Below, in pieces: positions 3,201 through 57,319 of a DNA stretch of 57,319 nucleotides (its first letter is position 1; every line of letters begins with the position of its first letter). Source of the stretch: a virus; the IMG/VR virus record IMGVR_UViG_3300025520_000002; one strand, written 5' to 3'. The position numbers and the translations under genes were made by a program. The notes under the pieces are model-generated. The model had not been told where the DNA came from. It saw only the letters and a program-made list of their open reading frames with translations, and ran no database searches.

Positions 3201-6200
3201 GCTTCGCTCGGACTGTATGCCTCGTCGTACACGTCCTGCAGGCGGAAGTACAGGCTGCGGAGAGTGTCCTCTCGCCCATACTTGCTGTTCGTCTCGCGCT
3301 CGGACCACGGCGTGGCGGCGAACCTTACTCCTTCGGTGCGTCCTTCTCCGCGCGGTCCATCTCCGCCGACGTCGGCAGTCGGTCGGGCCTCACCCTGCTG
3401 TCCACCTGTTCCTTCGGTGCCGGCCCCTTGGACCTGCGTTCCTGCGCCCGCTTCAACGCGGCTTCCAACGCGGGAGTAGTCTGCATACATCGTCTCCACA
3501 TAAGCGTGCGCCTCCGGCAGCTGCTGCTGCACGAACGCACGGAGTCCCGGGTCAAGGTGCGCAGCCCAGAGCTGGGCAAACACCTCGCTGTTTACAGCTT
3601 CAGGGGTGACCGACTCGTCTGCGAGAGGATACCGCAGGAACGAGCGAAGTCGCGTGGTCATGTCCGCCGGGCCGCCGTTGAACCGCTCGCGTACTACATC
3701 CACGATCTCCGCCCAAGCCGTATCTCCGGAGTAGTACGCGGAGCCGGCAGCGTCATCGGCGATGTGTGCCGCTTCGTGGTTGATCGTGCGGTTGAGGTCG
3801 TCGTCCGTCGCACGCGCCAGGAAGTCCTGGGTCAGAACGAGGCGGTACATGCCGTCGCCTTCCGGTACGACGAACGCATCCGCTCCGGTGTTTTCGCTGA
3901 GATACACGCCACTGATCTGGTCGTAGGCATGGCCGGCCGGGCTCACCAGCAGACGCCGCATGGCGTCCAGCACGCGGGGGTAACGCGCGAAGTTCATGTA
4001 CCGATACGACCAGAGGTTGCCGCCCGCGTCACGCGTCGACAGCTCCATGCCGAAGTACGGCTGGCGGGTGTAGAAGTTGCCCTGCTCCGCCTCGTCGAGC
4101 ATCTCGACGCCTGCACGATCAAACGCCGCCTGATTGATATCGAGGTTTTCCGCCGCCTGGTCGAGCTTCATCCATCGCTGCTTCTGCTGCGGCCCCCAGG
4201 CGCTCCACTCCGGATCACCGGCGCCGCGCCATGCGTCGTACGTCGCCTTCGCGGCGAGCAACGCCCCGCTGTTCTCATCTACCTCACGGGCTGTGAGGTC
4301 ACTGTTGTCGGCCCTGAACTCCACGAGGTCGGCCGGGTCTTGCGCGGCGCGTTCAAGCGAGCCGAGGTCAGCACCGGCGTTGATAACCTGGAACCCGGTG
4401 CTGGTGCCGCCTTCGGTGATGTCCTGCGCGATGCCCAGGTTCGCTGCATCCTGTGCCGTCATGCCGGCGCGGTCCTGGGTCAGTTGACGGATCTGGCTCT
4501 CGATCTCGGCGCGCTGTTCATCGGTCAGCCCCTCCTTGGTGTACTGCTCCTGGAGGTCGGCGAGACTTGCAGCGCGGGTAGTATCGGAGGGGACTGCGCT
4601 CGCGGGTCTCGCACTGAGGGCTTCGCGTACGGCAGTGGCGTCGAGTCCAAGACGCTGTGCAGTCTCAGCGAGAGCTGCAGCTGCAGCTGTCCGGCGCTTC
4701 TGCGCCCACTGTTTGTCGTTCTGCTCGAACTGCGCAGCGATGTCGGCGTCGCGGACCCCCATGGCCGAGAGGCGCAGCACGTCCTGCATCTGCGTCGGCA
4801 GCTGCTCGACCATGTACGCGACCTGTTGCTCGGGGTCGAGCCCGGTAACAAAGTTCTGCTCGTCGACGTCGTTCGCTTGGCGGACGGCGTCCATCGCGCC
4901 ACGTTTCACCCAGTCCATGCGTTCAGCGATGGCGTCCGCGGGGACAGCCCCCTGGTTGATCAGGGCGGCAAGGCGTCCGAGTTCAGCCTCTCGCAGTTTG
5001 TTGACCTTCTTGGTCTGCTTGATGCCGTACTGTTCCTTCAGCGTCTCCGCTGGTGGGATCAGGGGGCTTCGCGGGTCGCGCTCGGACGGGGTGCCGTAGA
5101 GCCGCGGGAACCCATCGCGTTGCACGGGCGGCTGCGCCTCCGGCACGCGCTCGTAGAGACTCGGCAGGGTGGGGTCGCCGAGTACAGATGTATCTACCTC
5201 CGGACGCGGAGGTACGTAAGGGTCGAGCCGCTCGTTCAGTGCAGGCAGGTCGCGCGTCGGCTCCTCGGATGGGATCACACCATAGCCGGGCGGCAGTTCG
5301 TTCAGGCGTGGGGCGTCCCCATAGGTATCGCCGAGCAGGTCACGCCGCTGGGTAGTGATAGGCACCGTCTCGCCTGGGATAGCACCGACTGCGCCAACCA
5401 CTCCGCCGCCCAGGGCTCCGAGCGCGCCAGCGTTCAGGTAGCCGCGGACAGCTTCTGCGTCCGTCAGGTCCTTGTAGTTCGCCTGCAGTTCGAGGGCCGT
5501 CTGGCCGATCTCAGTGCCTGCCTCAAGTCCAGCCTGCCGCACAGCTTCACGGCCGACGCGGCGAACGAGCGCTCCCGTAGCGCGGTCCCCGCCGAGGATG
5601 CGGTTCAAGGCCCGCAGCTCCGGCACAGCGTCAAGCAAGCCAGCGGCGGTGCCGTAGCCCAGTGCACGCAGCGAATCATCGTTTCCGGACTCGACCATCT
5701 CCGGGTAGATCGACCCGGCCTCCTGCGCGACGGACTGGGCAGCCGTGCCGAGCATCATGCCCCTGGAGGCACCCCGAGTGATCGCAGCCTTAGCAGCATC
5801 TCCAGCCAGAACAGCCGCACCACGGCGAGCCACAGCACCGCCCACCACACGGCCAGCGAGGCCAGCGCCAAGGCTACCGGCAGCCATTGGGACATGCTGT
5901 CCGAGGCCCGCCTGCGCAAAATCCACAGCGTCGCCGAAAGACGAGATGTTCGTGACGTCATCCGTCTCCCGAGCCAGGAGCGCGTCTTTTTCAAAGCGTT
6001 CACGGGCATAGTTCAGAGCGCCTCTCTTGATAGTTTCGGCGCCAGCGAGGTCAGCGGCGAGCGCGGTGACGCCGCCGATCGCTCCAAGGGTCTGCTGTCC
6101 GCCACGTCGCATGCCGCGGTAGAAGTCCCCGTCGTTCTGGCCGATGTCCACGCCCCAGTCGGTGGCGACACTGCGGATGTCCTTGCCGCTACGGCGGGAA

Positions 6201-6277
6201 AGCTCCTGCAGGATCTCGGCATCGGATGCCTCGGCCGCGTCCGGGTAGGCGCGGCGGATATCGTCGAGCGTGTTCAT
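236..6277 (-). CDS. Giant virion/ejection protein (2013 aa), PLxRFG type, with an internal HExxH zincin motif
   Basis: Uninterrupted ORF with GC-rich third positions. Motifs YAPLKRFGRH (PLxRFG) and TINHEAAHIADD (HExxH). Gly/Ala-rich N-terminus and hydrophobic helices near the C-terminus. Last gene of the structural operon. Confidence 0.7.
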   Translation of the reverse strand: MNTLDDIRRAYPDAAEASDAEILQELSRRSGKDIRSVATDWGVDIGQNDGDFYRGMRRGGQQTLGAIGGVTALAADLAGAETIKRGALNYARERFEKDALLARETDDVTNISSFGDAVDFAQAGLGQHVPMAAGSLGAGLAGRVVGGAVARRGAAVLAGDAAKAAITRGASRGMMLGTAAQSVAQEAGSIYPEMVESGNDDSLRALGYGTAAGLLDAVPELRALNRILGGDRATGALVRRVGREAVRQAGLEAGTEIGQTALELQANYKDLTDAEAVRGYLNAGALGALGGGVVGAVGAIPGETVPITTQRRDLLGDTYGDAPRLNELPPGYGVIPSEEPTRDLPALNERLDPYVPPRPEVDTSVLGDPTLPSLYERVPEAQPPVQRDGFPRLYGTPSERDPRSPLIPPAETLKEQYGIKQTKKVNKLREAELGRLAALINQGAVPADAIAERMDWVKRGAMDAVRQANDVDEQNFVTGLDPEQQVAYMVEQLPTQMQDVLRLSAMGVRDADIAAQFEQNDKQWAQKRRTAAAAALAETAQRLGLDATAVREALSARPASAVPSDTTRAASLADLQEQYTKEGLTDEQRAEIESQIRQLTQDRAGMTAQDAANLGIAQDITEGGTSTGFQVINAGADLGSLERAAQDPADLVEFRADNSDLTAREVDENSGALLAAKATYDAWRGAGDPEWSAWGPQQKQRWMKLDQAAENLDINQAAFDRAGVEMLDEAEQGNFYTRQPYFGMELSTRDAGGNLWSYRYMNFARYPRVLDAMRRLLVSPAGHAYDQISGVYLSENTGADAFVVPEGDGMYRLVLTQDFLARATDDDLNRTINHEAAHIADDAAGSAYYSGDTAWAEIVDVVRERFNGGPADMTTRLRSFLRYPLADESVTPEAVNSEVFAQLWAAHLDPGLRAFVQQQLPEAHAYVETMYADYSRVGSRVEAGAGTQVQGAGTEGTGGQQGEARPTADVGGDGPRGEGRTEGVRFAATPWSERETNSKYGREDTLRSLYFRLQDVYDEAYSPSEAFETAMEELTPQARRLLRELQNNDLLGFDYPHQALQALIEDPDSYDISPGLKRVISTFGNKYVRFSKPAQATAVESTLKEVLVPAARRTVAGYARKANYALLFGHQLVDRIGAMLPSARSFFRTLQDRITVRDRREARVMEIADRFYRLDQAEQARANRFIYESTFNQKWGYTPEWDRSAPVDAGMAAQFNALSEDAQLAVKQVFAYGNETQREYEQVLLRTKGAEVMTQLAEAEAAGDEKRIAALKKEQEKLTRENGALKTMLAGPYAPLKRFGRHAVVVRSQAFMDAEAAGEGARVEEMQSDPDHYQVMFVDSVFEREKKAVELQREFPDRNVVGFEREPESTRATELPLQAIKRLQEAIVTGPNGEKLSERSKRILGRIASDLYVASLDSLSARQTQQRRRNIHGANEDMMRAFVSQGRGMAHMLATLEVNGPMQESLQKMRTEARTGRTAEKADALNEVLNRYTLLMETRPTPFQDGAMATTSLWMLLTNPAYWFGNATQPFMMSLPVLAGRHNAGASWSAVLQGYRDTMPALEGRALDPRKLKSIVGREADAVQELLDRGHIDLTLEREMGEISETSWHTGHKIMGMLRWIPQRVEVTNRVATALAAYRLEYVRATGQGVDAATAHGLATEYADQIILDTHGDYSAAGAPRVLMQGSTQLPIKLMGQFRKFQLVQLGLMAKLIRQSFADGMSPDERTAARWSLAWMLGTYLTMTGLTGVIGANVVWGILSAFGDDDEKDLDLVLTRALGDRDAAILLTRGVPALLGMDVSQRLGMGNVLSLFPYADTEPAVKDSYTNYLMAATGPFLGGLLPRAASGVDYINQGDYWKGLELLVPNGLTNAMRAMRYAGEGYSNRKGDLLMSPDEIGVVSEIFQAVGLPTTVLTDRQWKAGVLYELEQTMRADATRIKRQYTEAARSRDTETMAELRGEWRQLQEMRARNGMKPQPLSSLLKAPQQQREREDLADEGVAMTKATAGFTGTVPD

Positions 6278-15659: not shown

Positions 15660-16655
15660 TTAGGCGACCAGTGCCGAAGTGAGAGCGGTGTCCTTCACGA
15701 CCTTGTAGCCGTAGACGTTCAGGCCACGGACCAGGTCACCGAAGTCGTTCGGGTTGCGAATCGACTCAGTCTTCACCAGCTGCGAGGCGAAGGTGATCGC
15801 CGACTTATGGCCGGCCAGGATCAGACGACGCTTGGCGGTACCGGCGGCAGCTGCACCGAAGTAGTCCTGGGTAGCAGCGGCGCGCGGGAGCAGGTTCGAG
15901 ACGTACACCTGGAAGCGGTCGATCATGCCGACCTTGCCGTTCCGCACCATCGACTTGTCGTCGCCCATCTGGAGCGCGTTGGCCAGGTTGGTGTTCATCA
16001 GCGCCTGGCGGGTAGCCGGGTCGATGAGCAGCCAGCGGCCTTCCTCCGGGACGTTCTGCTCATCCAGCACGGCTGCCATCTTCAGGATGGTGTCCAGTGC
16101 GGCGCCGGCGGACGACAGAGCGATCGGGGCGGCGGCGGTGCCGAGGTTGTACGCACCCGACAGCACACCCGCGGTCGCGCCCTGGTTGGCAGCAGCAACA
16201 GCGTTCCAGACGCCCTGACGGGTCGAGGTGCCGACGAGGATGTCGCGGTCGATTGCGATCTTCATCTGCATCGACGCGTCGTTGGAGAACATCTCCATCT
16301 GGTTCGGCTTGGACTGCGCGACCAGCACGTCGTGGATCGGGAAGTTGAACGACTTCGCGCGGTCGATCTGCATCTCGATCGTGCCCGGAGTCACCGGGAC
16401 ATACGTCAGCGTGCTGCCGATCGTGTAGTCCGCGATGCCGATGTCCGGCACGTTCTGGATGACAACCTTGTCGCCAAGACCCGAGATCTCACCTTGCCAG
16501 TCGGTATTGGCGATGTCGCCGAATACCGTGGTGGCATAGAACTTGGCGTTGAACTTGCCCGACCACAGGGTCGGAATGAAGGTGCCCGAGTAGTTGATGC
16601 CGGCGTACGAGCCGGTAACGCCAACCAGCGGGGTGCTTGCGGTAACAGTTGCCAC
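15660..16655 (-). CDS. Major capsid protein (331 aa, GTG start)
   Basis: T7/N4-type coat-like sequence (SGKFNAKFYATTVFGDIANTDWQGEISGLGDKVVI...). RBS GAAAGGAA. Follows the scaffold gene. Confidence 0.8.
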   Translation of the reverse strand: MATVTASTPLVGVTGSYAGINYSGTFIPTLWSGKFNAKFYATTVFGDIANTDWQGEISGLGDKVVIQNVPDIGIADYTIGSTLTYVPVTPGTIEMQIDRAKSFNFPIHDVLVAQSKPNQMEMFSNDASMQMKIAIDRDILVGTSTRQGVWNAVAAANQGATAGVLSGAYNLGTAAAPIALSSAGAALDTILKMAAVLDEQNVPEEGRWLLIDPATRQALMNTNLANALQMGDDKSMVRNGKVGMIDRFQVYVSNLLPRAAATQDYFGAAAAGTAKRRLILAGHKSAITFASQLVKTESIRNPNDFGDLVRGLNVYGYKVVKDTALTSALVA

Positions 16656-17992: not shown

Positions 17993-18015
17993 CCTAAGTT
18001 GTTAGCTTGTCAAGG
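17993..18015 (-). promoter_or_regulatory. Motif variant CCTTGACAAGCTAACAACTTAGG
   Basis: The motif's TAA is the portal stop codon. 13 nt upstream of the ATG at 17979. TTGACA-16-TATGGT can be read across it. Confidence 0.55.
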
Positions 18016-20077
18016 GTTGAGCAGTGTTGGTGACGGGAGTCCCGTCCGCCAGCTGCTGTCCGCCCCCGACCTGCGGCTGCATCTGCATTTGCTGCTGCGC
18101 CTGTGCCATCCAGCGCTGTTTGAGCACCTCGACCGGCGGGACCACCCGGTCGACCGGCATGTCGAGCCCCTTCGCCCCTTCGCGGAGCAGCTCTGCTGCT
18201 CCTTCCATGCCGATGACCTGTTGGGCGATCGGGCTCTGGAGGACCAGCTGGAGGTACTCGTTGCGACGCAGTTGCGCTTGCTCCTTTGCCACCAGCGACC
18301 TGGCGCCAGACGCGACGATGTACAGGTCGCCGCGCTTGAGATCCGTATCGGCGCTAGAGTCAATCATGTTGTTGTAGTACAGGCGTTCCAGGCACGGTTC
18401 GAGCACGCGTCCGTCCACGTTGCTGATGACCTGCTTGATGGTCTTCCCTGCGTTCGACATCAGCATGCTCATGCCGCTCGCCGTACGCCCGGCGCCGCCG
18501 ACAGCGGAATCCCCGGTCATGTAGCGTGGGATGCCGGAGTACTCATCCGCGAGGACGGAGAACTTCTCATACACCCCCATCAGCTCTGCTGCGTTGCTGT
18601 TGGGCTGGAAGAAGTCGATCGCTGGCGCAGTGGACCCGAATGGGTCGGACTTCGTCTGCCAGATCTTCCACGGGTACATCTGGGTGATCTTCTCGCCGTC
18701 GGCCAGGCGCTGCATGTTCACAGACACCTGCGGGCCGGAGCCGATCCCCATGTTGTTCATCAGCGCGCGAGCGGCGCCATTGCATGCGTCCTGGCAGTCG
18801 GCGACGAGATCCACTACCGAGTTGCCCCAGAACATCCCCGGCACTTGTTCGTAGCTTGCGGCGGCGTAGGGCTTCCGGCCGAGGTCATCGGGGTTGATCA
18901 CCGCACGGATAACCGTGTTGTCTATCAGCCATACCTCGCAGTCGTACTCGCGGGCGGGGTCTGGGACCTGGTCCTTGGGCAGTCCCCACTCGCGCAGCAT
19001 CTCGCCAGAGACCGACCCCCAGAATTGCAGTGCGTCGATACGCGTATCACCGTCGCCGACACCGGTCATATACGGGTCGAGGCGCCCTTCGGCTGCGGCC
19101 TTCGCGGAGTCTGCCGACATCCAGTTGTGGAACCCGCCACGCCCGTGCAGTTCCAGCACCTCGCGGATGGCCTTCTCGTTGTACCCGTCGACACCGATCA
19201 TCTCGGTCAGCGCCCGGCGCGTCAGCGGGATGTGCTCGATCATGTACCCGTCGTCGACGTTCGTCGCAAACGGGCTCGGGTAGAAGCGGAAGGGGTCGAC
19301 GCGCTCCCACTCCATCACCAGCCGCTCGCCTACCTTGGGCACCCAGCCGGCAGCCTCCTGCACCCACTCCAGCCGGCGCTTGCGGCGAACGACCGGCCCT
19401 TTGATGATGGCGGTCGGGAATGTAACCAGGTCGTCAATGAACTCCGAGAACGCGCGCTGGAAACCTCCCTCGGAGAGTTGGTCCTCCATCTTCAGCGCCA
19501 TGCGGTCCGCTGCGTCGCGCGCCTCAGCGTGAATGTCGGCCATCATCCGGTCGCGGAGACGCATCAGTGCCTCTCGCATGCCGGCGACCGTAGGCACCTG
19601 CCCCGTCGTCATGATGTATTGCTGCGCAGTGGCTGCGGCCTCCTGCATCGCCTCTTCCATAAGGTCCGGGGGGAGTTCCGGTATAGCCGTCGGCTCTATC
19701 GTCCACGGGCGAGCGCTGCCCGTGCCACCGTATGTGTCGCGGAGCCAGCTCGAAGCTGCACGACATTTGTTGCTCGTGAGCATCATGTAGATCTCAGACC
19801 CGCCGAACTGTCGGATCTGCGAGAGCTTCTCCGGGTCGTACTCCCCGCGTCGGCGGCGCACTGCCGACAACATGCGCTTCTCCACGCTCTGCATCTTGGC
19901 GTCGCGCGCTGCGTGCCAGCACTTGCGGACGTACCCAGCGAGTCCCTGGATAACCTGCTGGTTCTGCCCGTCTGTCGGCGCCGCGGCGGTAGTGGCCGCG
20001 GCAGCTTGGGCCGGCGTCATCACGCGTACGAGTCCACTACCCGCGTACGCAACGCGATCAATCGCTCCATCAGCCAT
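18002..20077 (-). CDS. Portal protein (691 aa)
   Basis: Size; position upstream of scaffold and capsid; conserved-looking core (DEYSGIPRYMTGD, YPWKIWQT). Confidence 0.7.
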   Translation of the reverse strand: MADGAIDRVAYAGSGLVRVMTPAQAAAATTAAAPTDGQNQQVIQGLAGYVRKCWHAARDAKMQSVEKRMLSAVRRRRGEYDPEKLSQIRQFGGSEIYMMLTSNKCRAASSWLRDTYGGTGSARPWTIEPTAIPELPPDLMEEAMQEAAATAQQYIMTTGQVPTVAGMREALMRLRDRMMADIHAEARDAADRMALKMEDQLSEGGFQRAFSEFIDDLVTFPTAIIKGPVVRRKRRLEWVQEAAGWVPKVGERLVMEWERVDPFRFYPSPFATNVDDGYMIEHIPLTRRALTEMIGVDGYNEKAIREVLELHGRGGFHNWMSADSAKAAAEGRLDPYMTGVGDGDTRIDALQFWGSVSGEMLREWGLPKDQVPDPAREYDCEVWLIDNTVIRAVINPDDLGRKPYAAASYEQVPGMFWGNSVVDLVADCQDACNGAARALMNNMGIGSGPQVSVNMQRLADGEKITQMYPWKIWQTKSDPFGSTAPAIDFFQPNSNAAELMGVYEKFSVLADEYSGIPRYMTGDSAVGGAGRTASGMSMLMSNAGKTIKQVISNVDGRVLEPCLERLYYNNMIDSSADTDLKRGDLYIVASGARSLVAKEQAQLRRNEYLQLVLQSPIAQQVIGMEGAAELLREGAKGLDMPVDRVVPPVEVLKQRWMAQAQQQMQMQPQVGGGQQLADGTPVTNTAQPLTS

Positions 20078-23000
20078 TGCTGCTCCCCATCAGGCTCGCC
20101 GCCTTGGAAATGAATTGCTGGGCGCGTTCGCGGAGCACATGCTCGTCGTCGCGCGCCTCGGCCATGCCGACGACGTAGTCCATCACCGCCGGCCAGAAGA
20201 CCCGAAGAACCGGGAACTCGTCCTGCATCGCGTACCGCTCTGGTGCGTACGCCGCCGACACGTCCAGCGGATGTCCAAACTGCGCCGGCGGCGTAACGTA
20301 GAACCTGCGCGGGTCACCCTCGTACGGAATCCAATGCGCCGGGGTCGAAAGCTCCGCCGTCATCCAGTCGGGGTCGAAGCGCTCTACCAACTCACGTGTG
20401 GTGGGACGCAGTCCGGCAATCGACGAGATGCGGATGGTGGAAGCAAGCGGGAGCCGCTGTACGACGCCTTCCTCGCACTTGTGCTTGATGAGTGCTGTGA
20501 ACAGTTCCGGGCGTACCGTCGCCAGTACGGCGAGCGCATCGTTCGCGTACCCGAGCAGGTCATCACCTGAGTAACGATACGGCTCCCGGCGGTCTGACAG
20601 GACACCGCGCGCCTGCTCAACCAGGACAGCCATCGTGTTCTGCTGCTGTGCGTTCCGGATCACCCGGACCTGGAAGCTGAAGCTCTCGCTGTCGGTCTCC
20701 GTCAGCACCTGACACGTGACGGTGTATGTCGAAAGGTGGGTGCCCCCCGACAGTGAGATCGCTGCCATGCCCGCCAAGAACGAGGTGGCGACAACGGTCA
20801 GCCCCGGCGACGTCCACGCGATGGATGTGGGGGTGCGGCCCGCTAGCCAACTGGCCCAGTTGACCTGGTATGTGGCGACCGCCTCGGGGTCCTTCTCGTA
20901 TACCCACTTGTCCTGCACCATGTAAGCAACCGACATGGGAGGAACAGAGTTCGGCACGTGCTCCGGTTCAGGGGGCGGCACGGGAGGCACGCCCTGCACG
21001 ATGTTGGGCTGGTTTCCGGACAGCGTGAGCCATGCGCCGACCGGCGATACCGTGATCGGCTGCGGGGGGATAACGATCGGCGTGATTACGGAAGGCGCCC
21101 CGCCGGTGGCAGTGATCGTCCCGGCCCCAGGGGTCACAACCGGACCCGTCATTGCGACGGAATACCCAAGGAGTGACGCCATGCGCGAGGCGATCGTGAC
21201 GATCTCTGCGCTGCCTTCGTAGTGGAGCGTGTCGTATGCCGGGGTGGGGCTGTCCAGGTCCAGTACGCCGAGCACATGCTCGTTGCTCGCCATGCCCGCG
21301 AGGGCAGCGCGGAACAGCGCGCCGTTCGCCTTGGGCGTCGGGTTGGCGTGGCATGGCATGGTCAGGACCCACTCTGCGGTCTGCCCGGATGCGGCGAACG
21401 CATCCATGATGGCGTCGAGCTTGCCCGCGTAGAGAGACGGATCGAGACCTGTGCCAGTCGCGTCGTCGGACATCGAGCCTTCGCCCTGCCACCACAGAAC
21501 TGCTCTGCAGCTGCCAATGCGCTGCGCCGTCGCCTGGAGCGCGCCGTACAGTGTGTTGGTGTCCGTCGGGTTGTTGGCCTCCCACATGTCGATCGTGGAA
21601 CTGCCTCGCGCTGCCGGGACCACGGCGATCGGGACGCCAGCCGCCATGGCAAGAGTGGCCAGATGCCCGTAGTAGGTGCCGTTGCGACCGCCGCCGCTCC
21701 CGAACGCGGAGTACACCGCCACCGCAGGGTCGTGAAACGGATTGTCCGGGGTCTCGAAGTTCTCCCTCCATGTATGCGCGAAGTCGAACTCGACCGCCTT
21801 CCAGGTGGGGTTGGCAGAGGGGGGTACGGGCTGCAGGAACGACGGCGACCAACCGGCTGCATTGCTTTGTCCGGCGGCGATATACACGTCCCCCACGCCG
21901 ACCAACGTCAGCGATGCGGATACGGCCGTATCGTTTGCGAACCGGATCTCCAGGGCACCTTGCGCAGGGCCGGAGAGCGTGACCGTTGCATCAAAGGCCC
22001 CGCCTGACGGTGAGGCGACGAGGGTCGCCCAGCTCCCGCCGTTGAAGCGCCACTGGATCGCAGTTGGCGCACCGTCGTACTCACCGGTGATGCGCACCCC
22101 GGTGGCCTGGTTCGATCCATTGCGTTGGAACAGCCGGTAGTTACGAGCGCCGGCCGGATCAGGACTGCCGCCAGACATCGGGACAGTGAACGAGATCGAG
22201 TTCGCTTCGACGGTGATGTTCGCTACGTCCGCAGACACCACCACCGTGTTGTTACTGTACCGGGCGCGGAGCACTGCGGCGACGGCGACGGGCAGCACTG
22301 CATTTCCAGACCAAACACCAGCCGACGCGGAGAACCCGGACAGCGTCACCCACGTGCCCCCGCCATGCTGTACCTGCACTCCTGCGGGGGCGGTACCGGT
22401 GTATGTGCCGCTGATCGTCGTGGTCGTAGGGATGCTGCTGCCCGCCGTCGGCGACGTGATGGTGAGGCCGTCCGAGGGTACTACGTTCGCTTCGAGGGCG
22501 AAGAAGTCACGGCCGACGTTCTGGGTCGTCGCGTCGTCCAGGGAAGTGCCGCCCCAGAAGCGAACGCCGTGGAAAGCTACGTCAATAGTCGCGGCGCTGG
22601 ACTGGTTCCAGCCCAGATACACGCGCTTGGCGCTGGTGTCGTTCCAGTCGGTGCTGTCACTGCCCGCAGCATTGCGTGCGATGAGGATGCCCGTCGGAGT
22701 CGCCTCTTGCGTCCAGACGTTCGTGACCCCGGCCCGGCGGCGAAACCACATGACGATGGTCTTGTTCGCACCGTAGACAACCGCGGTTTGCGCGGCGCCT
22801 TCACCGGTGGAGCTTGCTGCGTTGATGTACCAGCCGTTGCCGTTGCTCTCGGCGACGACGAACGAGACAAGCGCAGTGCCCGCGTCATTACGGACAACGA
22901 ACGCGTTGACCGAATTGGCCGAGGTGGGGAGTGTCGCGCCGGTGGTGATGAGTACAGCGACCTGGAAGTCGCCCGTGCCAACCTGGAGCCCCTGCCCGAG

Positions 23001-23246
23001 GAACGTCGTGTTGCTGTAGCTCGCTGGGTTACCGAGCCGAATACCTGGGATGCCGTTGTAGGTTACGGCCGTGCGCGTACCAGTGACCGACATCGTCGGT
23101 GCTGTCGCACCGCCATAGAGGAACGGCTGGGCCTCCGGTACGGTGGTGTCAAACCCAGTGAAGTCCCAGGCAAGCGTGACCCCGGCCGCGGCCGGGATGG
23201 ACCCCCGCGATAGCGGTAGAGTCCGCTGGTCGTAACTTACAGGCAT
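20070..23246 (-). CDS. 1058-aa multidomain virion protein. N-terminal lectin/Ig-like region, SASA/SGNH-type carbohydrate O-acetylesterase, small beta domain and a C-terminal adaptor-like domain.
   Basis: Esterase signatures AAGQSNAAGW and LWWQGEGSMSD (aa ~450-690). Pro-rich linker PPVPPPEPEHVP. No stop codon and no SD before the in-frame Met771 or Met872. Confidence 0.6.
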   Translation of the reverse strand: MPVSYDQRTLPLSRGSIPAAAGVTLAWDFTGFDTTVPEAQPFLYGGATAPTMSVTGTRTAVTYNGIPGIRLGNPASYSNTTFLGQGLQVGTGDFQVAVLITTGATLPTSANSVNAFVVRNDAGTALVSFVVAESNGNGWYINAASSTGEGAAQTAVVYGANKTIVMWFRRRAGVTNVWTQEATPTGILIARNAAGSDSTDWNDTSAKRVYLGWNQSSAATIDVAFHGVRFWGGTSLDDATTQNVGRDFFALEANVVPSDGLTITSPTAGSSIPTTTTISGTYTGTAPAGVQVQHGGGTWVTLSGFSASAGVWSGNAVLPVAVAAVLRARYSNNTVVVSADVANITVEANSISFTVPMSGGSPDPAGARNYRLFQRNGSNQATGVRITGEYDGAPTAIQWRFNGGSWATLVASPSGGAFDATVTLSGPAQGALEIRFANDTAVSASLTLVGVGDVYIAAGQSNAAGWSPSFLQPVPPSANPTWKAVEFDFAHTWRENFETPDNPFHDPAVAVYSAFGSGGGRNGTYYGHLATLAMAAGVPIAVVPAARGSSTIDMWEANNPTDTNTLYGALQATAQRIGSCRAVLWWQGEGSMSDDATGTGLDPSLYAGKLDAIMDAFAASGQTAEWVLTMPCHANPTPKANGALFRAALAGMASNEHVLGVLDLDSPTPAYDTLHYEGSAEIVTIASRMASLLGYSVAMTGPVVTPGAGTITATGGAPSVITPIVIPPQPITVSPVGAWLTLSGNQPNIVQGVPPVPPPEPEHVPNSVPPMSVAYMVQDKWVYEKDPEAVATYQVNWASWLAGRTPTSIAWTSPGLTVVATSFLAGMAAISLSGGTHLSTYTVTCQVLTETDSESFSFQVRVIRNAQQQNTMAVLVEQARGVLSDRREPYRYSGDDLLGYANDALAVLATVRPELFTALIKHKCEEGVVQRLPLASTIRISSIAGLRPTTRELVERFDPDWMTAELSTPAHWIPYEGDPRRFYVTPPAQFGHPLDVSAAYAPERYAMQDEFPVLRVFWPAVMDYVVGMAEARDDEHVLRERAQQFISKAASLMGSSNG

Positions 23247-23262: not shown

Positions 23263-23721
23263 TTAGACGATCACGATCCAGCCGGCGGTCGGGCAGTTGA
23301 CCGTCAGCGGGTATCCGTCCGTCGTCGCGGGGACGTTCGCCGGAGTGGTATCTCCAAGGAAATAGCCGAGCAGCGGGTCCGTGACGCCCCACAGAGCACC
23401 CTCGACGTAGAGCACGCCATACCGCCAGGCCGGGATATTGCCGCCTGCAGCGGTCCACACAGCGTTGGAGCTAGAGAGCTTCCAGCCGTTAGTGACAGCC
23501 GTCTTGGTGAGGGATACGAGCGTGGCGCCGCCAGGTGTGTAGCCACTGCCGCCCGTGATCTCATGGGCGCTCACGTCCGCCCAAGTGTCGTGCCCGCTGG
23601 TACCGACGTCAGGCACATAGCTGCTCGACAGCAGCGCGATCTTCACCGTTGCGCCGAGCAAATCGTCGATGTTGATCGCGTCCTTGTTGGCGCTGTAAAT
23701 CGTGGTGTTACCGGCTGCCAT
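23263..23721 (-). CDS. Hypothetical virion-module protein (152 aa)
   Basis: Strong RBS AGGAGG; beta-rich sequence; two motif copies upstream. Confidence 0.55.
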   Translation of the reverse strand: MAAGNTTIYSANKDAINIDDLLGATVKIALLSSSYVPDVGTSGHDTWADVSAHEITGGSGYTPGGATLVSLTKTAVTNGWKLSSSNAVWTAAGGNIPAWRYGVLYVEGALWGVTDPLLGYFLGDTTPANVPATTDGYPLTVNCPTAGWIVIV

Positions 23722-23812: not shown

Positions 23813-23828
23813 TGTCAAGGTGTTAGCT
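23813..23828 (-). promoter_or_regulatory. Motif variant AGCTAACACCTTGACA
   Basis: Starts within the TerL stop codon TAG. Confidence 0.55.
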
Positions 23829-25293
23829 ATGTCCAGCCGCCGGATGAGATCGTCTCGATCGGCTGCGCCTTGACGTCGTGCGCAGCCCCGACGAGTTCTG
23901 CCCCGCCGGCGTTCAGGCAGAGGTACTGGAAGCTGTCCGCCAGGTCCGACCAGGGGTGTGACTTCTCGGGCGAGACCTCCGTCTCCCCTTTGCTGTTGGT
24001 CTTGTAGCGATACTTGCCGGCGAGTGCCTGGACCAGGGGGGCGGCGTGCGTCGGGCACAGGAGAACCCCCGGCTCCCCGTCCACCAGTCGCGTAAGCAAT
24101 GCATCCACCGCGCCCAGTCGAGCTGGTAGTGTGTTGTTGGTGCATGCCGCCTTGACCATGAATCCTTCGGCCTTGTAGATGTCGGCCACTGTCCGTTCGT
24201 CGGTCTGCGCCCGCTGAAACGCCGCCGGGTCGACGAGCACTACGCTTCTACGCCCAGGGAACCGGTTGGCCAGCACGGGCTTGAGCTTTTCGCGGATGAA
24301 CCGAAGCGCCCCCATCCCCTCCGACGGGATGGCGTGGTAGACCAGCAGCCGGCCGCGGTAGTCCACCTCCCCGATCGACACTGCCGGTGAGAGCCCCGCA
24401 TCCGCCCCGATGAGCAGCAGCCCGCTCGACGCTGTCTGGATGAGCAGCTCGCTCTTGGCGACGTGGATGGATCGGTTGAACGCCTTGTGCACCGGCTGGC
24501 CGGAGAGCGACTTGCCGAACTTGGCGTGGATGTAGACGTCGATGTAGTCCTGCTTCTTCCCCGCGGCGAGGTTCTCGTAGTAGTCCGCCGGCAGGTACTT
24601 GATCCAGTCCGCCTCCGGCGACATGCCGCTGGGCTGGATGGTCACGTGGGTGTTCTCGGGCGGATCGGAGAGGAACGTCTCCCAGAACGTATCCATGTCA
24701 GGCGGGTTACTCGCCCCCCACAGGTGCGCGTTGGGCTGGCCGTCCTCGGTGACACACCCGCCGACCGGGCTCCCCTTCTTGTCGAGCCCCCACTCCGGTC
24801 GATGCGGCACCATCATCTTGTCCGGGTATCGGCCAAGACGCCCCTGCAGTGCTTCGAAGATGTCCTTGTTGTGCTCCCGGAACTCCTCCAACACGGCGAA
24901 ACTCGTCTGCAGCGAGAGCAGGCGGCGCACGTCGTCAGCGTCGTCCAGGCCGCGGAACAGCACCTCGCACTCCACGTCGTTGAACTGGAGCACGAACCGG
25001 TACTCCGTCTTGTAGAACGTGCCGGCCACGCCGTCCTGGTAGATCTTCAGGAAGTCCGGGATGCTCGTGTCGCGCAGCTGCTCCTTGGTGTTGCGCACCC
25101 ATACACACCGGGACCGCCGGATACCGTCCTTGCAGGGGGCCATGCGTGCCGCGTGGTACGCGATCTTCGCCAGGCTGGCCGATGTCTTGGTCGAGCCGAC
25201 CGGCCCCACCACCAGGCTGATGAATTTCTCCGAGGTGAAGAAGTCGTAAAGCGATGCAACCGGCTCGATGACCAGGTTGTTGTCGTCAGCCAC
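23827..25293 (-). CDS. terL: Terminase large subunit (488 aa)
   Basis: Walker A VGPVGSTKTS, Walker B-like FAVLEEF, and a C-terminal RNaseH-fold nuclease region (LLIGADAGLSP...). Confidence 0.85.
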   Translation of the reverse strand: MADDNNLVIEPVASLYDFFTSEKFISLVVGPVGSTKTSASLAKIAYHAARMAPCKDGIRRSRCVWVRNTKEQLRDTSIPDFLKIYQDGVAGTFYKTEYRFVLQFNDVECEVLFRGLDDADDVRRLLSLQTSFAVLEEFREHNKDIFEALQGRLGRYPDKMMVPHRPEWGLDKKGSPVGGCVTEDGQPNAHLWGASNPPDMDTFWETFLSDPPENTHVTIQPSGMSPEADWIKYLPADYYENLAAGKKQDYIDVYIHAKFGKSLSGQPVHKAFNRSIHVAKSELLIQTASSGLLLIGADAGLSPAVSIGEVDYRGRLLVYHAIPSEGMGALRFIREKLKPVLANRFPGRRSVVLVDPAAFQRAQTDERTVADIYKAEGFMVKAACTNNTLPARLGAVDALLTRLVDGEPGVLLCPTHAAPLVQALAGKYRYKTNSKGETEVSPEKSHPWSDLADSFQYLCLNAGGAELVGAAHDVKAQPIETISSGGWT

Positions 25294-25744
25294 GCAGCTC
25301 TGCCCTCGTGAACGTCAGCGTGTCGATGCCCATGCCGCACCCGACGTCCAGGTCGCACGCTACCTGCACCGCCTGCCTGGCGTTCTTTCCCAGGTGCATG
25401 GCTGCCAGGGCGAAGTGGATGCCACTGCCGATCGCCCTCTTCTGCTCGTGGAACACGATCGGGTACGGCGAGTCCTCGTAGGTGAGGGTCTTGCCTGAGG
25501 GCAGCACGACCAGTGCTTCGCTCTCACTCTCTTCGAGTGCTTTGGGCCAGGTGTTCAGGTCGAAGCCCGTCTGCGCCCAATGGACGAACGCCTGCATGTC
25601 GAACGCGCGACCAGCCACGCCGATCAGCACCGGCCCGTCTTCTGTCTGGACCTTGGCGATTTTCGTTGTAGCCATGCGCGTGTTCGCGCCGGTGGCCTGC
25701 CGGTCGGCGGCCAGGGTTTTGCCGTCCCAAGCGATGCAGGTCAT
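25286..25744 (-). CDS. HslV-like (proteasome beta-type) Ntn peptidase (152 aa)
   Basis: [32 protein letters not shown] aligns by eye with the HslV N-terminus [35 protein letters not shown]. Thr2 nucleophile, conserved Lys and the AIGSG motif are present. Confidence 0.7.
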   Translation of the reverse strand: [152 protein letters not shown]

Positions 25745-26232
25745 CAGAACTCCTCTGTCGGAAGTGCGACCTCCGCGAGCGCGGTGAGGTCGATGTTGAT
25801 GTTCGGCACCGCGGTGGCAGTGCCTTCGATGACACGGCCCTTGGGGGGCTGGAGGTTGAAGGTGATGCTGAACTTAGGACCTGTGTCGGCCTGCACTGCC
25901 TGCTTGGCTCCAATGCCGGCGCCCTTGAACAGCACGTCCAGGTACTTGACGTCCACTTCCTTCAGGCTGCGTGCGGAGACCGCCTTGGTGCAGTGCTCCA
26001 TGTGAGCGATGGCATGCATGCGCACGCGCGCCTGGTCCATCTCCCCCGTCTTCTCCAGCTGGCGGCGCTGCTCGGTGACTGCACGCTCAAGCTCGGGGCT
26101 GCGCAGTAGGTAGGCGACCTGCTCGTTCTCGAATCCGAAGTCACGAAGCACCTGCTCCGGGTCGGTCATGCCGAACGCCAGGGCAAGCACTGCTTTGTGC
26201 GGGACGTCGTAGAGGGAGATTTGATTCGACAT
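25744..26232 (-). CDS. First late gene (162 aa), candidate small terminase subunit
   Basis: Called from position only (two genes upstream of terL, first gene of the operon); no diagnostic motif. Confidence 0.35.
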   Translation of the reverse strand: MSNQISLYDVPHKAVLALAFGMTDPEQVLRDFGFENEQVAYLLRSPELERAVTEQRRQLEKTGEMDQARVRMHAIAHMEHCTKAVSARSLKEVDVKYLDVLFKGAGIGAKQAVQADTGPKFSITFNLQPPKGRVIEGTATAVPNINIDLTALAEVALPTEEF

Positions 26233-26264: not shown

Positions 26265-26294
26265 CAAAAAAGACGCCCTGGTGTGAGCAGGGCG
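26265..26294 (-). terminator. Rho-independent terminator on the minus strand, about 30 nt upstream of the first late gene
   Basis: Minus-strand sense CGCCCTG-ctcacac-CAGGGCG followed by TCTTTTTTG. Confidence 0.7.
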
Positions 26295-26351
26295 AAGAGG
26301 AGACCACAAGGAGGTGAATCGAGTGTACGGGTGGCTGGTTGGCGGGTCAAG

Positions 26352-33928: not shown

Positions 33929-33940
33929 GTTAACACCTTA
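33929..33940 (+). promoter_or_regulatory. Motif variant GTTAACACCTTA
   Basis: Abuts the ATG at 33940. Confidence 0.4.
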
Positions 33941-35169
33941 TGAGTTACGCATCCAACGACGAAGGTGGTGAGGAGATCGCCATCAGAGCCGACGTCAAGC
34001 GACTGCTCCACATGATGAGCTACCGGCGCAAGCATGGTAGCCAGACAGAGGTCGACTTCATCACCGACTACCTCATACCGCTGCATGGCCTCTACAGCCT
34101 GCACGCCCCGCCCGCCAAGGAAGGCGAGGACATGGGTCCGGCCATGTGCTACGTCATCGACATCGGCACACCGACCGTCGTGTTCTCCAGCCACGTGGAC
34201 ACCGTCCACTCAGGTGGGGGGATGCAGGTGGTTGAGTACGACGCCAACCTGCAGGTGGCATACAAGCAGGACAACCAGCCGCTGGGTGCCGATGACGCTG
34301 CGGGTGTGTGGCTGCTCCTGGAGATGATCAGCGCCGGCGTGCCGGGACGTTACATGTTCCACCGTGGTGAAGAGTGCGGCGGTCTGGGCAGCAGGATGGT
34401 CGCCCAACACCACAAAGATCTGTTCGATGGCATCACCCACGCCATTGCATTCGATCGCAGAGGTGACTGCTCTGTCATCACCCACCAGCGGGGCGGGCGT
34501 TGCTGCTCGGACAAGTTCGCCGATGAGCTTGCGTGTCGACTGACTGCCTCGACGGGGCACACCCTTTCGGCGGACGACACGGGGAGCTTCACCGACACGG
34601 CCAACTACACCGACATCATCGGTGAGTGCACCAACGTCTCAGTCGGCTATCTGGATGAGCACTCCGGCAAAGAGATGCTGGACATCGAGTACCTGCTCAA
34701 GCTGCGCGATGCGTGCTGCGACCCTGCCATGTGGGTCGACCTGCCTGTGGTGCGCAAGGCTGGTGAGTACGAGCCTCGGACGTATGGCTACGGCGGCTAC
34801 GGTAGCTACGGCCGGCTGATGGATGAGTACGAGGAGGCGAGCTACCTCGGGTGGCTCGCACGGCACTGGCCCGACGAGACCCCGCAACGCAAGCTCTCAC
34901 TGGTGGAGAAGGAACTGGAGGGAGACCTGACTTACTCCGAGGTGCGACGGGCCAGCGGCGCCGACCTCAAGGAGTGGGCGATGCGCGCCAAGGCGAGCGA
35001 CGTGGTCGAGACCATCCTCAACCTGTCAGACCTGGTGTCCACGTACGAAGACGAGCTTGCAGAAGCGCCCGGCGATGAGTGGATCGGGTATGCCAGCGCG
35101 CTGGAGGATCTGCTGGAGGCCAACGGTATCCGCTTCGACCACCTCTCTATCGGCGGCGGCAGCAGTTGA
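33940..35169 (+). CDS. M28/M42-like co-catalytic zinc peptidase (409 aa)
   Basis: Ordered ligand-like motifs SSHVDTVH, LGADDAAGVW, HRGEECGGLGS, AFDRRG and GYLDEHSG. Confidence 0.6.
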   Translation: MSYASNDEGGEEIAIRADVKRLLHMMSYRRKHGSQTEVDFITDYLIPLHGLYSLHAPPAKEGEDMGPAMCYVIDIGTPTVVFSSHVDTVHSGGGMQVVEYDANLQVAYKQDNQPLGADDAAGVWLLLEMISAGVPGRYMFHRGEECGGLGSRMVAQHHKDLFDGITHAIAFDRRGDCSVITHQRGGRCCSDKFADELACRLTASTGHTLSADDTGSFTDTANYTDIIGECTNVSVGYLDEHSGKEMLDIEYLLKLRDACCDPAMWVDLPVVRKAGEYEPRTYGYGGYGSYGRLMDEYEEASYLGWLARHWPDETPQRKLSLVEKELEGDLTYSEVRRASGADLKEWAMRAKASDVVETILNLSDLVSTYEDELAEAPGDEWIGYASALEDLLEANGIRFDHLSIGGGSS

Positions 35170-55915: not shown

Positions 55916-56203
55916 ATGTCAGCAAGGTTCGTGACCATCGCCAAGTTCTCTGCCGAGTCGGGATATACGGAGGACGCGATTCGCACTAAGATCCGCGACG
56001 GTGTGTGGATCGAGGGCGAGGTGTGGCGGTACGCACCTGATGGCCGCATCCTTGTGGACATGGAGGGGTACGACAAGTGGGTCATGAGCGGAAGTACGAA
56101 GGCGTTCGCCCCGGTTCGGGGTCGTCGATCGAGATCGACTTTCGCTACAACGAGCGCCGCTGCAAAGAGCGCCTCCCCCTTGAGCCCACCCCCGCTAATC
56201 TAA
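55916..56203 (+). CDS. xis: Excisionase-like DNA-binding protein (up to 95 aa; the C-terminal tail overlaps int)
   Basis: FVTIAKFSAESGYTEDAIRTKIRDGVWIEGEVWRYAPDGRILVDMEGYDKWV resembles Xis/AlpA-type winged helix; directly upstream of int. Confidence 0.55.
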   Translation: MSARFVTIAKFSAESGYTEDAIRTKIRDGVWIEGEVWRYAPDGRILVDMEGYDKWVMSGSTKAFAPVRGRRSRSTFATTSAAAKSASPLSPPPLI

Positions 56204-57273
56204 AGCGGGCAGCTCTCCATCGCGCCGCCGTCCTGGCGGCCATACGTGACGGGTCGTTCGACTACGCCACGACATTCCCCAAATCAAAGAACGCACAGCG
56301 GTTTTCACTGCGGCCGCAGGGCGACAACGGCTACACAGTGGCGCCCTACCTCGACAGCTGGATCAAAGCCAAGGCGCTGGAACTCAAGTCCAGCACGCTG
56401 CGTGGCTACGAGAAGGTGATCAACCGGTACTGGATACCAACCATCGGCAAGGATCGGCTGGCAGACCTTCGGCGCCCGCGGATCAAGGAAGTGTGCGCCG
56501 GGCTGGATGTCACCAACAAGACACTGGCCAACGCACAGAGCGTGCTGCGCGCGGCCCTCGACGACGCGGTTGAGAACGAGCTGCTGGACGCGAACCCTCT
56601 GGCCAACTGGACCTACGCGAAAGCCGGTGCAGTCCAAGAGGACGATGATATCGACCCCTTCACGGCCGCCGAGCAGCGCGCGATCTTAAGCGGGCTCGCC
56701 GGTCACGCAAAGAACCTGGTGCAGACAGCGCTCTGGACCGGCATGCGCACCAGTGAACTGGTGGCGTTGGAGTGGCGGGACGTCGACTTCGTGGCCGGTT
56801 TGATCCGCGTACGCCGCATCCGGACACAGCACTCCAAGAGCCCAGAGCCACCGAAGACGAAGGCCGGCCGGCGCGACATCAAGATGTTGCCGCCGGCGCG
56901 CGGGGCGCTGCAGGCCCAGTACGAACTCACCGGGCACCAAGAGGTGGTGTTCTTCAACCCTGCGTACGGAGAACCCTGGACCGGCGACCAGGCCATCCGC
57001 AAGACGATGTGGCAGCCGGCTCTTGAGCGAGCGAAGGTACGGTACCGCTACCCCTACCAGACTCGGCACACCTACGCCTCGATGATGCTCTCCGCCGGCG
57101 AGCACCCGATGTGGGTCGCGCAGCAGATGGGCCATGCTGACTGGGGGGTGATCCGCAGAGTGTATGGGCGCTTCATGCCGGAGGCAGCCCCCGACGCCGG
57201 GGACCGGGCGTGCAGGATGTTCTGGGTGAACGGTCAACAAATGGTCAACATCGGAGAAAACGCGGCGTCCTGA
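56077..57273 (+). CDS. int: Tyrosine integrase (398 aa, GTG start)
   Basis: N-terminal arm-binding-like SSIEIDFRYNERRCKERL. Catalytic residues in GMRTSEL (R), RHTYAS (H-x-x-R region) and HADWGVIRRVYGRF (H...Y). Followed by the tRNA-fragment core. Confidence 0.9.
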   Translation: MGHERKYEGVRPGSGSSIEIDFRYNERRCKERLPLEPTPANLKRAALHRAAVLAAIRDGSFDYATTFPKSKNAQRFSLRPQGDNGYTVAPYLDSWIKAKALELKSSTLRGYEKVINRYWIPTIGKDRLADLRRPRIKEVCAGLDVTNKTLANAQSVLRAALDDAVENELLDANPLANWTYAKAGAVQEDDDIDPFTAAEQRAILSGLAGHAKNLVQTALWTGMRTSELVALEWRDVDFVAGLIRVRRIRTQHSKSPEPPKTKAGRRDIKMLPPARGALQAQYELTGHQEVVFFNPAYGEPWTGDQAIRKTMWQPALERAKVRYRYPYQTRHTYASMMLSAGEHPMWVAQQMGHADWGVIRRVYGRFMPEAAPDAGDRACRMFWVNGQQMVNIGENAAS

Positions 57274-57319
57274 CGCCGTTTTCCGCGGGTTCGATTCCCG
57301 CCGCCTCCACCACCATATC
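57193..57319. repeat. Right copy of the 127-bp terminal direct repeat
   Basis: Identical to 1..127. Confidence 0.95.

Follow-up and report, generated by a model that had tools for sequence, protein, structure and literature searches.

Why does a tailed phage keep a gene for a proteasome-like peptidase between its genes for DNA packaging? This question is raised by a stretch of viral DNA of 57,319 nucleotides (nt), IMG/VR record IMGVR_UViG_3300025520_000002, which as a whole is referred to as the window in this article. Its minus strand encodes, at 25286..25744, a protein of 152 amino acids (aa) between the gene for the terminase large subunit (terL) and a 162-aa gene called terS-like. The original prediction, made by eye from the sequence, took the product for a phage-encoded HslV. 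As described below, the gene is a member of an already known family, the phage/prophage proteasome homologue (PPH), and not an HslV orthologue. The reading favoured here, with a probability of roughly 0.6, is that the PPH gene encodes an accessory, late-expressed and ATPase-independent peptidase, a stripped-down (~145-aa) N-terminal nucleophile (Ntn) hydrolase with the proteasome fold.

Open Reading Frame and Expression Signals

The 152-aa open reading frame (ORF) is confirmed from the sequence, and its overlaps are as originally claimed. The ATG of the peptidase gene (25744-25742) has base 25744 in common with the TGA of the upstream 162-aa ORF (TGATG), and its TGA overlaps the GTG start of terL by 8 nt (GTGGCTGA). 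This GTG start is supported by related TerL proteins, whose alignments begin at residue 1. A GAGGAG motif is found at 25755-25750 on the minus strand, 5 nt 5′ of the ATG, and probably acts as the Shine-Dalgarno sequence of the peptidase gene from within the end of the upstream gene. Neither promoter nor terminator flanking the peptidase gene was found by a consensus scan, and the single promoter-like site upstream of it precedes the 162-aa gene (25744..26232, minus strand), the first in the late operon. Therefore, the peptidase gene reads as an internal cistron of this operon. The promoter-like site itself, a sigma-70-like sequence at 26322..26350 (minus strand), is a weak candidate from the consensus scan only. 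Between this site and the start of the terS-like gene lies a terminator-like hairpin with a T-run (26274-26294, minus strand), which might match by chance or might serve late transcription as an attenuator or antitermination target. The dN/dS ratio of the peptidase gene is 0.14-0.22, comparable to that of terL (0.10-0.22); the gene is under purifying selection, a functional gene maintained where it is present.

Fold and Family Assignment

In PHROGs, the full-length protein matches phrog_1040, “peptidase HslV family,” with E = 1.9e-36, while the Pfam Proteasome model stays below its threshold (18.4 bits vs. a cut-off of 22.4) and a phmmer search with the single sequence against the PDB gives a marginal match to proteasome beta3 (E about 0.2). 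A profile of 59 homologues matches HslV/CodW (6.8e-5) and the beta-proteobacterial proteasome homologue, BPH (1.2e-4), in the PDB, with gaps falling in the second apical helix of HslV, H2. The same alignment of 59 homologues was used to build an AlphaFold (AF2) model, a single-chain prediction with a pLDDT of 96.1 and a pTM of 0.90. In this model, the proteasome beta-sandwich is accompanied by one long helix (residues 47–58) at the site of the H1/H2 pair of HslV and 20S proteasomes, and this helix is followed by an 18-residue linker with 3-residue turns only, leaving no H2. The H3/H4 pair is at 109–117 and 122–132, and the C-terminus is short, with a strand at 140–143 and a 5-residue helical turn at 147–151 and no S12/H5. 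Foldseek against the PDB places HslV first (E = 4e-9, TM about 0.70) and archaeal 20S beta and BPH close behind (TM 0.70–0.76); in a viral structure library, closer but uncharacterised phage proteins are found (TM 0.83). Profiles and structure searches thus agree with the original prediction on the superfamily, and place the peptidase as an Ntn hydrolase of the proteasome/HslV superfamily whose active site is intact. Only proteasome/HslV-type matches were obtained for it in Pfam, PHROGs, and NCBIfam, and none to the prohead protease families S78, S49/ClpP-like, and U9/U35.

The narrower claim of HslV identity does not hold. Three HslV-defining features fail in the peptidase: the score against curated models, the H1/H2 pocket, and the hslU partner. 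With the NCBIfam equivalog models of HslV, the protein scores 14.1 bits for TIGR03692 (cut-off 157.75) and 13.6 bits for NF003964 (cut-off 137), and the alignment with HslV, first thought to run over the whole length, misses helix H2 and the C-terminal ~20 residues of HslV. As for hslU, the window carries an exact direct repeat of 127 nt at its ends (1-127 and 57193-57319), the usual sign of a circular assembly, and is therefore a complete circular phage genome of ~57,192 bp. No match to AAA+, HslU, or ClpX proteins was found among its 18 ORFs of at least 250 aa, each scanned with Pfam, NCBIfam, or PHROGs, so that the genome appears, as was noticed from the beginning, to have no HslU or other AAA+ unfoldase.

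Which family, then, does the protein belong to? PPH is one of the 22 new homologues of the proteasome that were described by Fuchs, Alva and Lupas (2021, PMC8665760). PPH was reported as a protein of about 140 residues from Caudovirales and prophages of Proteobacteria, a member of group I radiating from BPH, that has no helix H2, no C-terminal S12/H5, and no propeptide, and with which no AAA+ protein is associated or co-occurs; no informative genomic context was given for it. According to its describers, PPH is the first truly viral branch of the proteasome family, and the superfamily as a whole is functionally versatile and includes even a ligase, connectase (PMC8665760). All the features of PPH that can be tested in the peptidase are found there: the size, the missing H2 and S12/H5, the catalytic set, the missing propeptide, and the setting in a tailed phage or prophage of Proteobacteria. 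The length of 152 aa compares with a family median of 145–147 aa, most relatives ending near residue 144. The assignment, which rests on these described features with PHROG 1040 and annotated phage homologues as a proxy for the reference sequence WP_042125023.1, is almost certainly correct.

The family is far more abundant than reported: clustered at 50% identity, the matches of an exhaustive profile search form 817 clusters at E ≤ 1e-30 and 6,219 at E ≤ 1e-10, the former figure comparing with 324 nr90 sequences in 2021. About 44 phage records in GenBank/RefSeq contain homologues with 27–37% identity to the window copy, annotated as “peptidase HslV family” or “NTN hydrolase domain protein,” and HslV-like genes without HslU have already been remarked on in phage papers (PMC7823757). 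Some family members have long C-terminal extensions (190–320 aa in total), such as L089:3001-3804 of Vibrio phage 1.187.O and the proteins indexed as P0145, P0207, and P0213; these are possibly the “RPC” group of Fuchs et al., which is PPH-related and has a C-terminal extension.

Catalytic Residues and the N-Terminus

Conservation of individual residues was counted over 265 diverse members of the family. The column of Thr2 (codon ACC, 25739..25741), the predicted N-terminal nucleophile (Thr1) once Met1 is removed, has Thr in 230 and Ser in 34 members, and 257 of 264 relatives have the nucleophile at residue 2, the exceptions looking like mis-called starts. Asp14 (GAC, 25703..25705), equivalent to Asp17 of the proteasome, and Lys28 (AAA, 25661..25663), equivalent to Lys33, are present in all 265 members, and Gly45 (GGT, 25610..25612), equivalent to Gly47 of the oxyanion hole, in 263. 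The Gly106-Ser107-Gly108 stretch (GGC AGT GGC, 25421..25429), which aligns to the GSGG motif of HslV and corresponds to the Ser129/Gly130 motif of the proteasome, has Gly106 in 265/265, Ser107 as Ser in 207/265, and Gly108 in 263/265. The three motif matches first picked out by eye correspond to invariant family columns (D14, K28, G45, and G106-S107-G108), and the catalytic Thr/Lys/Gly positions on which the original prediction was staked prove, together with Asp, to be essentially invariant.

In addition to the catalytic set, D7-G8, W56, and P67 are invariant residues specific to PPH. The most conserved non-catalytic stretch of the family is helices H3/H4, which correspond to the ring-ring contact region of the proteasome and HslV, and therefore some oligomer of PPH is plausible. 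At 46 of 80 viral loci there is no in-frame start further upstream, which excludes a propeptide in these cases.

Genomic Context and Patchy Distribution

The survey of this gene position in related phages that had been proposed at the outset was carried out, and it indicates that the position is lineage-specific and patchy. Among 467 TerL relatives in IMG/VR, the best 80 (62–70% identity) were examined. A hidden Markov model of the peptidase family was positive at none of these 80 loci while both positive controls were found, and a portal relative (37–55% identity) is detectable at 79 of them. At least 700 nt upstream of terL are available at 64 loci, and in 58 of these (among L090-L169) a conserved ORF of ~116 aa lies directly 5′ of terL with an overlap of about 17 nt; this ORF probably encodes the small terminase of these phages. 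By BLAST, it is unrelated to the 162-aa gene of the window and to the gp49_66 gene described next, so that the idea that it is the same gene as the latter was rejected.

In the closest relatives, the sister phages L004 and L005 and the integrated prophage L170 (78–85% identity), the peptidase gene is kept upstream of terL. These relatives carry an extra Phage_gp49_66 (PF13876) gene of 115–116 aa between the terS-like gene and the peptidase gene (L004:5647-5997, L005, L170:5489-5836), and the comparison of the window with L004 reveals a clean indel of 350 nt exactly at this junction. The terS-like/peptidase junction is thereby marked as a hotspot of accessory-gene gain and loss. L170 (JGI 3300073941) is a phage of the same type integrated at 23.7–34.2 kb in a contig of 470,807 bp, presumably chromosomal. 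Furthermore, the terS-like protein P0265 is indexed in 25 collection blocks (24 contigs read), of which eight have contigs of 0.2–1 Mb, and therefore the lineage is temperate and widespread in that sample set.

Where is the gene found in more distant phages? The context survey covered 84 loci, which represent 71 lineages at 80% identity; antisense shadow ORFs that the ORF caller produced in GC-rich loci (e.g., “cluster 1”) were ignored in the tally. In at least 32 of the 71 lineages, a packaging, head, or neck gene lies within three genes of the PPH gene. The commonest arrangement is scaffold-major capsid protein (MCP)-adaptor Ad1-[PPH]-head-closure Hc1-Neck1-tail terminator, and others are portal-[PPH], terL-x-[PPH]-portal, and [PPH]-terS-terL. 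The order terS?-[PPH]-terL is seen again in L040 and L067, with a terL of an unrelated family (phrog_38, not phrog_2). In seven lineages the PPH gene is beside HNH, helicase, polymerase, or methylase genes, and the remaining 32 have mixed neighbours including holin/endolysin, NinB, primase, polymerase, MazG, and a few head genes. Annotated phages have it within the tail genes as part of a small island (PEi21, IME346), within the early genes (BUCT548), behind the spanins (phi Xc10), or behind PhoH (Vibrio 1.187.O), and in another relative it is directly upstream of DNA polymerase. At L006:1-7400, a 47%-identical PPH gene is located inside a phage-borne cluster for nonulosonic-acid/sugar biosynthesis (NeuB, epimerase/dehydratase, CTP-transferase, methyltransferase, acetyltransferase). 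Typically for the family, the gene overlaps its upstream neighbour by 4 nt (ATGA), as seen in 36 of the 57 lineages where this neighbour is on the same strand. As a rough guide of our own, a random gene in a phage of ~70 genes with a packaging/head/neck block of ~12 genes would come within three genes of this block in roughly one case out of four. The share of lineages that do so is at least 45%, which therefore suggests that PPH genes are enriched in late packaging/head/neck operons.

The phages with the Ad1/Hc1 arrangement offer a second view of this patchiness. A single-sequence search with Ad1 found only near-identical loci, and an alignment-based search was then used; it gave 75 relatives (Ad1 46–99% identical) with sufficient downstream sequence. 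The PPH gene is present in only seven of them, and Ad1 abuts Hc1 directly in 58. The gene is patchy in two independent lineages, those of TerL and of Ad1/Hc1, and thus is an insertion at an otherwise tight junction of a late operon. Most phages sharing the assembly module do without the PPH gene, which would make it dispensable for that module, and the terS-like/terL position in the window is a lineage-specific one.

Possible Roles of the Enzyme

Position alone suggests a prohead or virion maturation protease, which would process scaffold, capsid, or fibre proteins in place of the missing conventional prohead protease. The gene is embedded in and translationally coupled to the packaging genes, its homologues recur in head/neck modules (Ad1-[PPH]-Hc1, portal-[PPH], and the terS?-[PPH]-terL of L040/L067 with its unrelated terL), and indeed no other prohead protease was recognised in the window by Pfam and PHROGs, as had been stated at first. 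However, a maturation protease is expected to be a fixed part of the head module; the absence of the gene from all 80 TerL-sharing phages, where terL abuts the conserved 116-aa gene instead, and from 68 of the 75 Ad1/Hc1-lineage relatives therefore weakens this role. PPH genes are also found in replication, early, and lysis modules of other phages, heads of the portal-scaffold-MCP type as in T7, P22, and SPP1 assemble without a protease, and the 1058-aa gene that had been regarded as a polyprotein encodes a multidomain fibre protein (see below). This role, raised by the original prediction, is now quite unlikely. The other role raised there, an HslV mimic that docks onto the HslU ATPase of the host and redirects ATP-dependent proteolysis, seems very unlikely. 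Proteobacterial hosts generally carry hslVU, the phage has no ATPase of its own, and HslV is the best match among solved structures, but BPH and 20S beta match nearly as well in Foldseek and the equivalog scores of about 14 bits are far from the cut-offs of 137–158. In addition, the pocket of HslV for the C-terminal tail of HslU is made of Phe54/Phe57 (H1), Ala79/Lys80 (H2), and Gln114 (PMC6429459). The H2 part of this pocket is absent in the AF2 model and in the alignments, and therefore docking to host HslU by the canonical route is unlikely, in line with the lack of AAA+ co-occurrence for PPH in Fuchs et al. (PMC8665760).

The enzyme may not be a protease at all. It could instead resemble connectase and be a ligase or transpeptidase, or be an amidase whose substrate is a small molecule or a cell-wall/glycan peptide, since the superfamily is versatile (PMC8665760), and some relatives are located in lysis cassettes or in a sugar-biosynthesis cluster; the loss of H2, too, may be incompatible with a closed proteolytic chamber. 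Nevertheless, the family has retained, like the proteolytic members of the superfamily, a complete proteasome-type triad along with the oxyanion Gly and the GSG motif, its nearest neighbours in structure, HslV and 20S beta, are themselves peptidases, BPH has been solved in complex with the proteasome inhibitor epoxomicin (5ovt), and the S3/S4 insertion of the connectase type is absent from the AF2 model, all of which leave a non-proteolytic function unlikely. Accessory genes of prophages are often defence genes, and the lineage is temperate, with an integrase (56077..57273) and the integrated copy in the 470-kb contig. The gene might accordingly be a component of prophage-borne anti-phage defence or a lysogenic-conversion gene expressed from the prophage. 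This is highly improbable: PADLOC gives no hit, the gene has no promoter or terminator of its own and overlaps the neighbouring frames within a late operon, and homologues are carried by many virulent phages, including Autographiviridae and jumbo phages.

The accessory, ATPase-independent peptidase is thus preferred, and its action can be envisaged as follows. The gene would be transcribed within the late packaging/head operon, and its translation would be coupled to that of the upstream gene. Methionine aminopeptidase of the host would then remove Met1, Thr and Ser being permissive second residues for this reaction, and expose the amino group and the hydroxyl of Thr1 as the catalytic centre, with no need for autoprocessing. 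Late in infection, the enzyme would act without an ATPase on peptides or on unfolded or loosely folded proteins, candidate substrates being host proteins or surplus phage proteins, and it would confer a fitness benefit without being required in virion assembly.

Several points weigh against this reading. The peptidase activity, the oligomeric state, and the substrates are predicted from homology alone, and a literature search on PPH and phage HslV-like proteins for experimental work gave annotation-level mentions only. A conserved triad is no proof of proteolysis, as the superfamily relatives include the ligase connectase. The frequent location in head, neck, and packaging operons could still point to a role linked to assembly. 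The tally of contexts is a biased lower bound, made with a crude ORF caller and with annotation mainly of recurrent, conserved, mostly structural neighbour clusters in lineages that are not independent of each other. As a tentative and rather unlikely variant, PPH may be an optional protease linked to assembly. Co-translated with the proteins of packaging, head, and neck, it would either trim or remove a scaffolding or structural component, or be packaged itself and injected to act against a host protein. If true, PPH would represent a class of morphogenesis or ejection proteases in phages that is new and derived from the proteasome, and the repeated independent insertion at terS/terL, portal, and Ad1/Hc1 junctions would be explained.

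The window gene adds one more case to a known family and is no discovery in itself, and the interest that remains is generic to PPH, whose question is sharpened modestly. The window copy provides a clean case of PPH in a complete temperate phage associated with Dechloromonas. What is new beyond the original description of the family (PMC8665760) is the comparative result, namely frequent insertion into late head/neck/packaging operons, yet a patchy presence among close relatives. Two observations narrow the hypotheses: the gene is under purifying selection and typically welded by overlaps into late operons, and it seems dispensable for those assembly modules. To learn what a minimal proteasome without ATPase does for a phage would inform the biology of phage and host (takeover of the host, counter-defence, or recycling, for example), and also the question of the lower size limit for a working enzyme of the proteasome type.

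The Rest of the Phage Genome

An identical peptidase protein is on record in a metagenome-assembled genome (MAG) of Dechloromonas sp., on a contig of 57,333 bases, and the phage genome is binned with a Dechloromonas MAG. A megablast search with 13 kb around the peptidase gene against 50,697 phage records found no match, and a close cultured relative of the phage thus seems not to exist among these records. The minus strand is the structural arm, with genes for a DarB-like 2013-aa protein, fibres, the MCP (15660..16655), a scaffold-like 304-aa protein, the portal (18002..20077), a 1058-aa protein (20070..23246), TerL (23827..25293; 488 aa, matching phrog_2 with E = 6.4e-17 and having IMG/VR relatives), the peptidase, and the terS-like protein. 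The plus strand is the arm of replication and lysogeny, with DNA polymerase A, an SNF2 helicase, a DUF927 primase-helicase, and the integrase. The head module was called T7-like at first, which is a loose description: the portal is of the SU10/phrog_332 type, and the terminase genes are located upstream of the portal gene, unlike in T7.

The 1058-aa gene contains DUF7311, a SASA/SGNH carbohydrate esterase, a podophage-GP4 Gp77 fibre-tail adaptor, and a phrog_399 structural domain according to Pfam and PHROGs. These are ordinary fibre/adaptor domains without any hint of a polyprotein, and that interpretation was rejected. No match to this gene was found at any of the 80 TerL-relative loci, and a separate 152-aa neighbour at 23263-23721 is matched at only one of them (L099). 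In the TerL relatives, terL is directly followed by the portal gene; therefore, these two genes, which intervene between terL and the portal gene in the window, are also lineage-specific.

The 162-aa gene has no match in Pfam, PHROGs, or NCBIfam, and a homologue search gave five close relatives only. Its AF2 model is poor (pLDDT 56), with three short helices and a long helical hairpin, and a Foldseek search with it was uninformative (best E = 1.2). The name “terS-like” comes from position, size, and helical layout only.

Two other proteins of the genome deserve mention. The 2013-aa protein encoded at 236-6277 on the minus strand matches the DarB-like antirestriction family over its C-terminal ~730 residues (phrog_10089, E = 4e-56). 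Its gene stands at the end of the structural arm, and the protein may be packaged and act against restriction. On the plus strand, a 409-aa protein encoded at 33940-35169 has weak similarity to M28/PepT-like metallopeptidases (20.3 bits vs. a cut-off of 21.3 in Pfam; a local match to an NCBIfam PepT-like model with E = 1e-7), and is a possible second peptidase of the genome, in the early/replication arm.

Comparison with Known Systems

Prohead proteases, such as HK97 gp4 (S78), lambda gpC (ClpP-like S49), and T4 gp21 (U9), resemble the peptidase in that they are phage-encoded and often belong to a late morphogenesis operon. They have unrelated folds and use Ser or Ser/His catalysis in contrast to Ntn-Thr, and they occupy a fixed portal-capsid slot that is conserved within lineages, whereas the PPH gene is variable in position and patchy.

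HslV (ClpQ) provides the closest solved structures and shares with the peptidase the Thr1 exposed by removal of Met, the catalytic residues, and the GSG motif. The identity between the two is 17–24%, however, and the peptidase has no apical H2, lacks about 20 C-terminal residues, and is not accompanied by hslU. HslV itself is a dodecamer of two stacked hexameric rings. BPH (PDB 5ovs) and archaeal/bacterial 20S beta have the same fold and catalytic set (TM 0.70–0.76), but they are proteins of 180–220 aa with both apical helices, unlike the peptidase. BPH assembles into a tetradecamer, and its pore loop is long and acidic; like the peptidase it has no known ATPase, and in the published cluster map PPH is linked to BPH as its hub.

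The closest likeness is to PPH of Fuchs et al. (2021): both are alike in size at about 140–150 aa, in the proteasome-like core with Thr/Ser1-Asp17-Lys33 and Gly47, in having no propeptide, no H2, and no S12/H5, in their setting in phages and prophages of Proteobacteria, and in the lack of an AAA+ ATPase. Nothing substantive differs between them, the window copy being 7–8 residues longer at the C-terminus than the family median.

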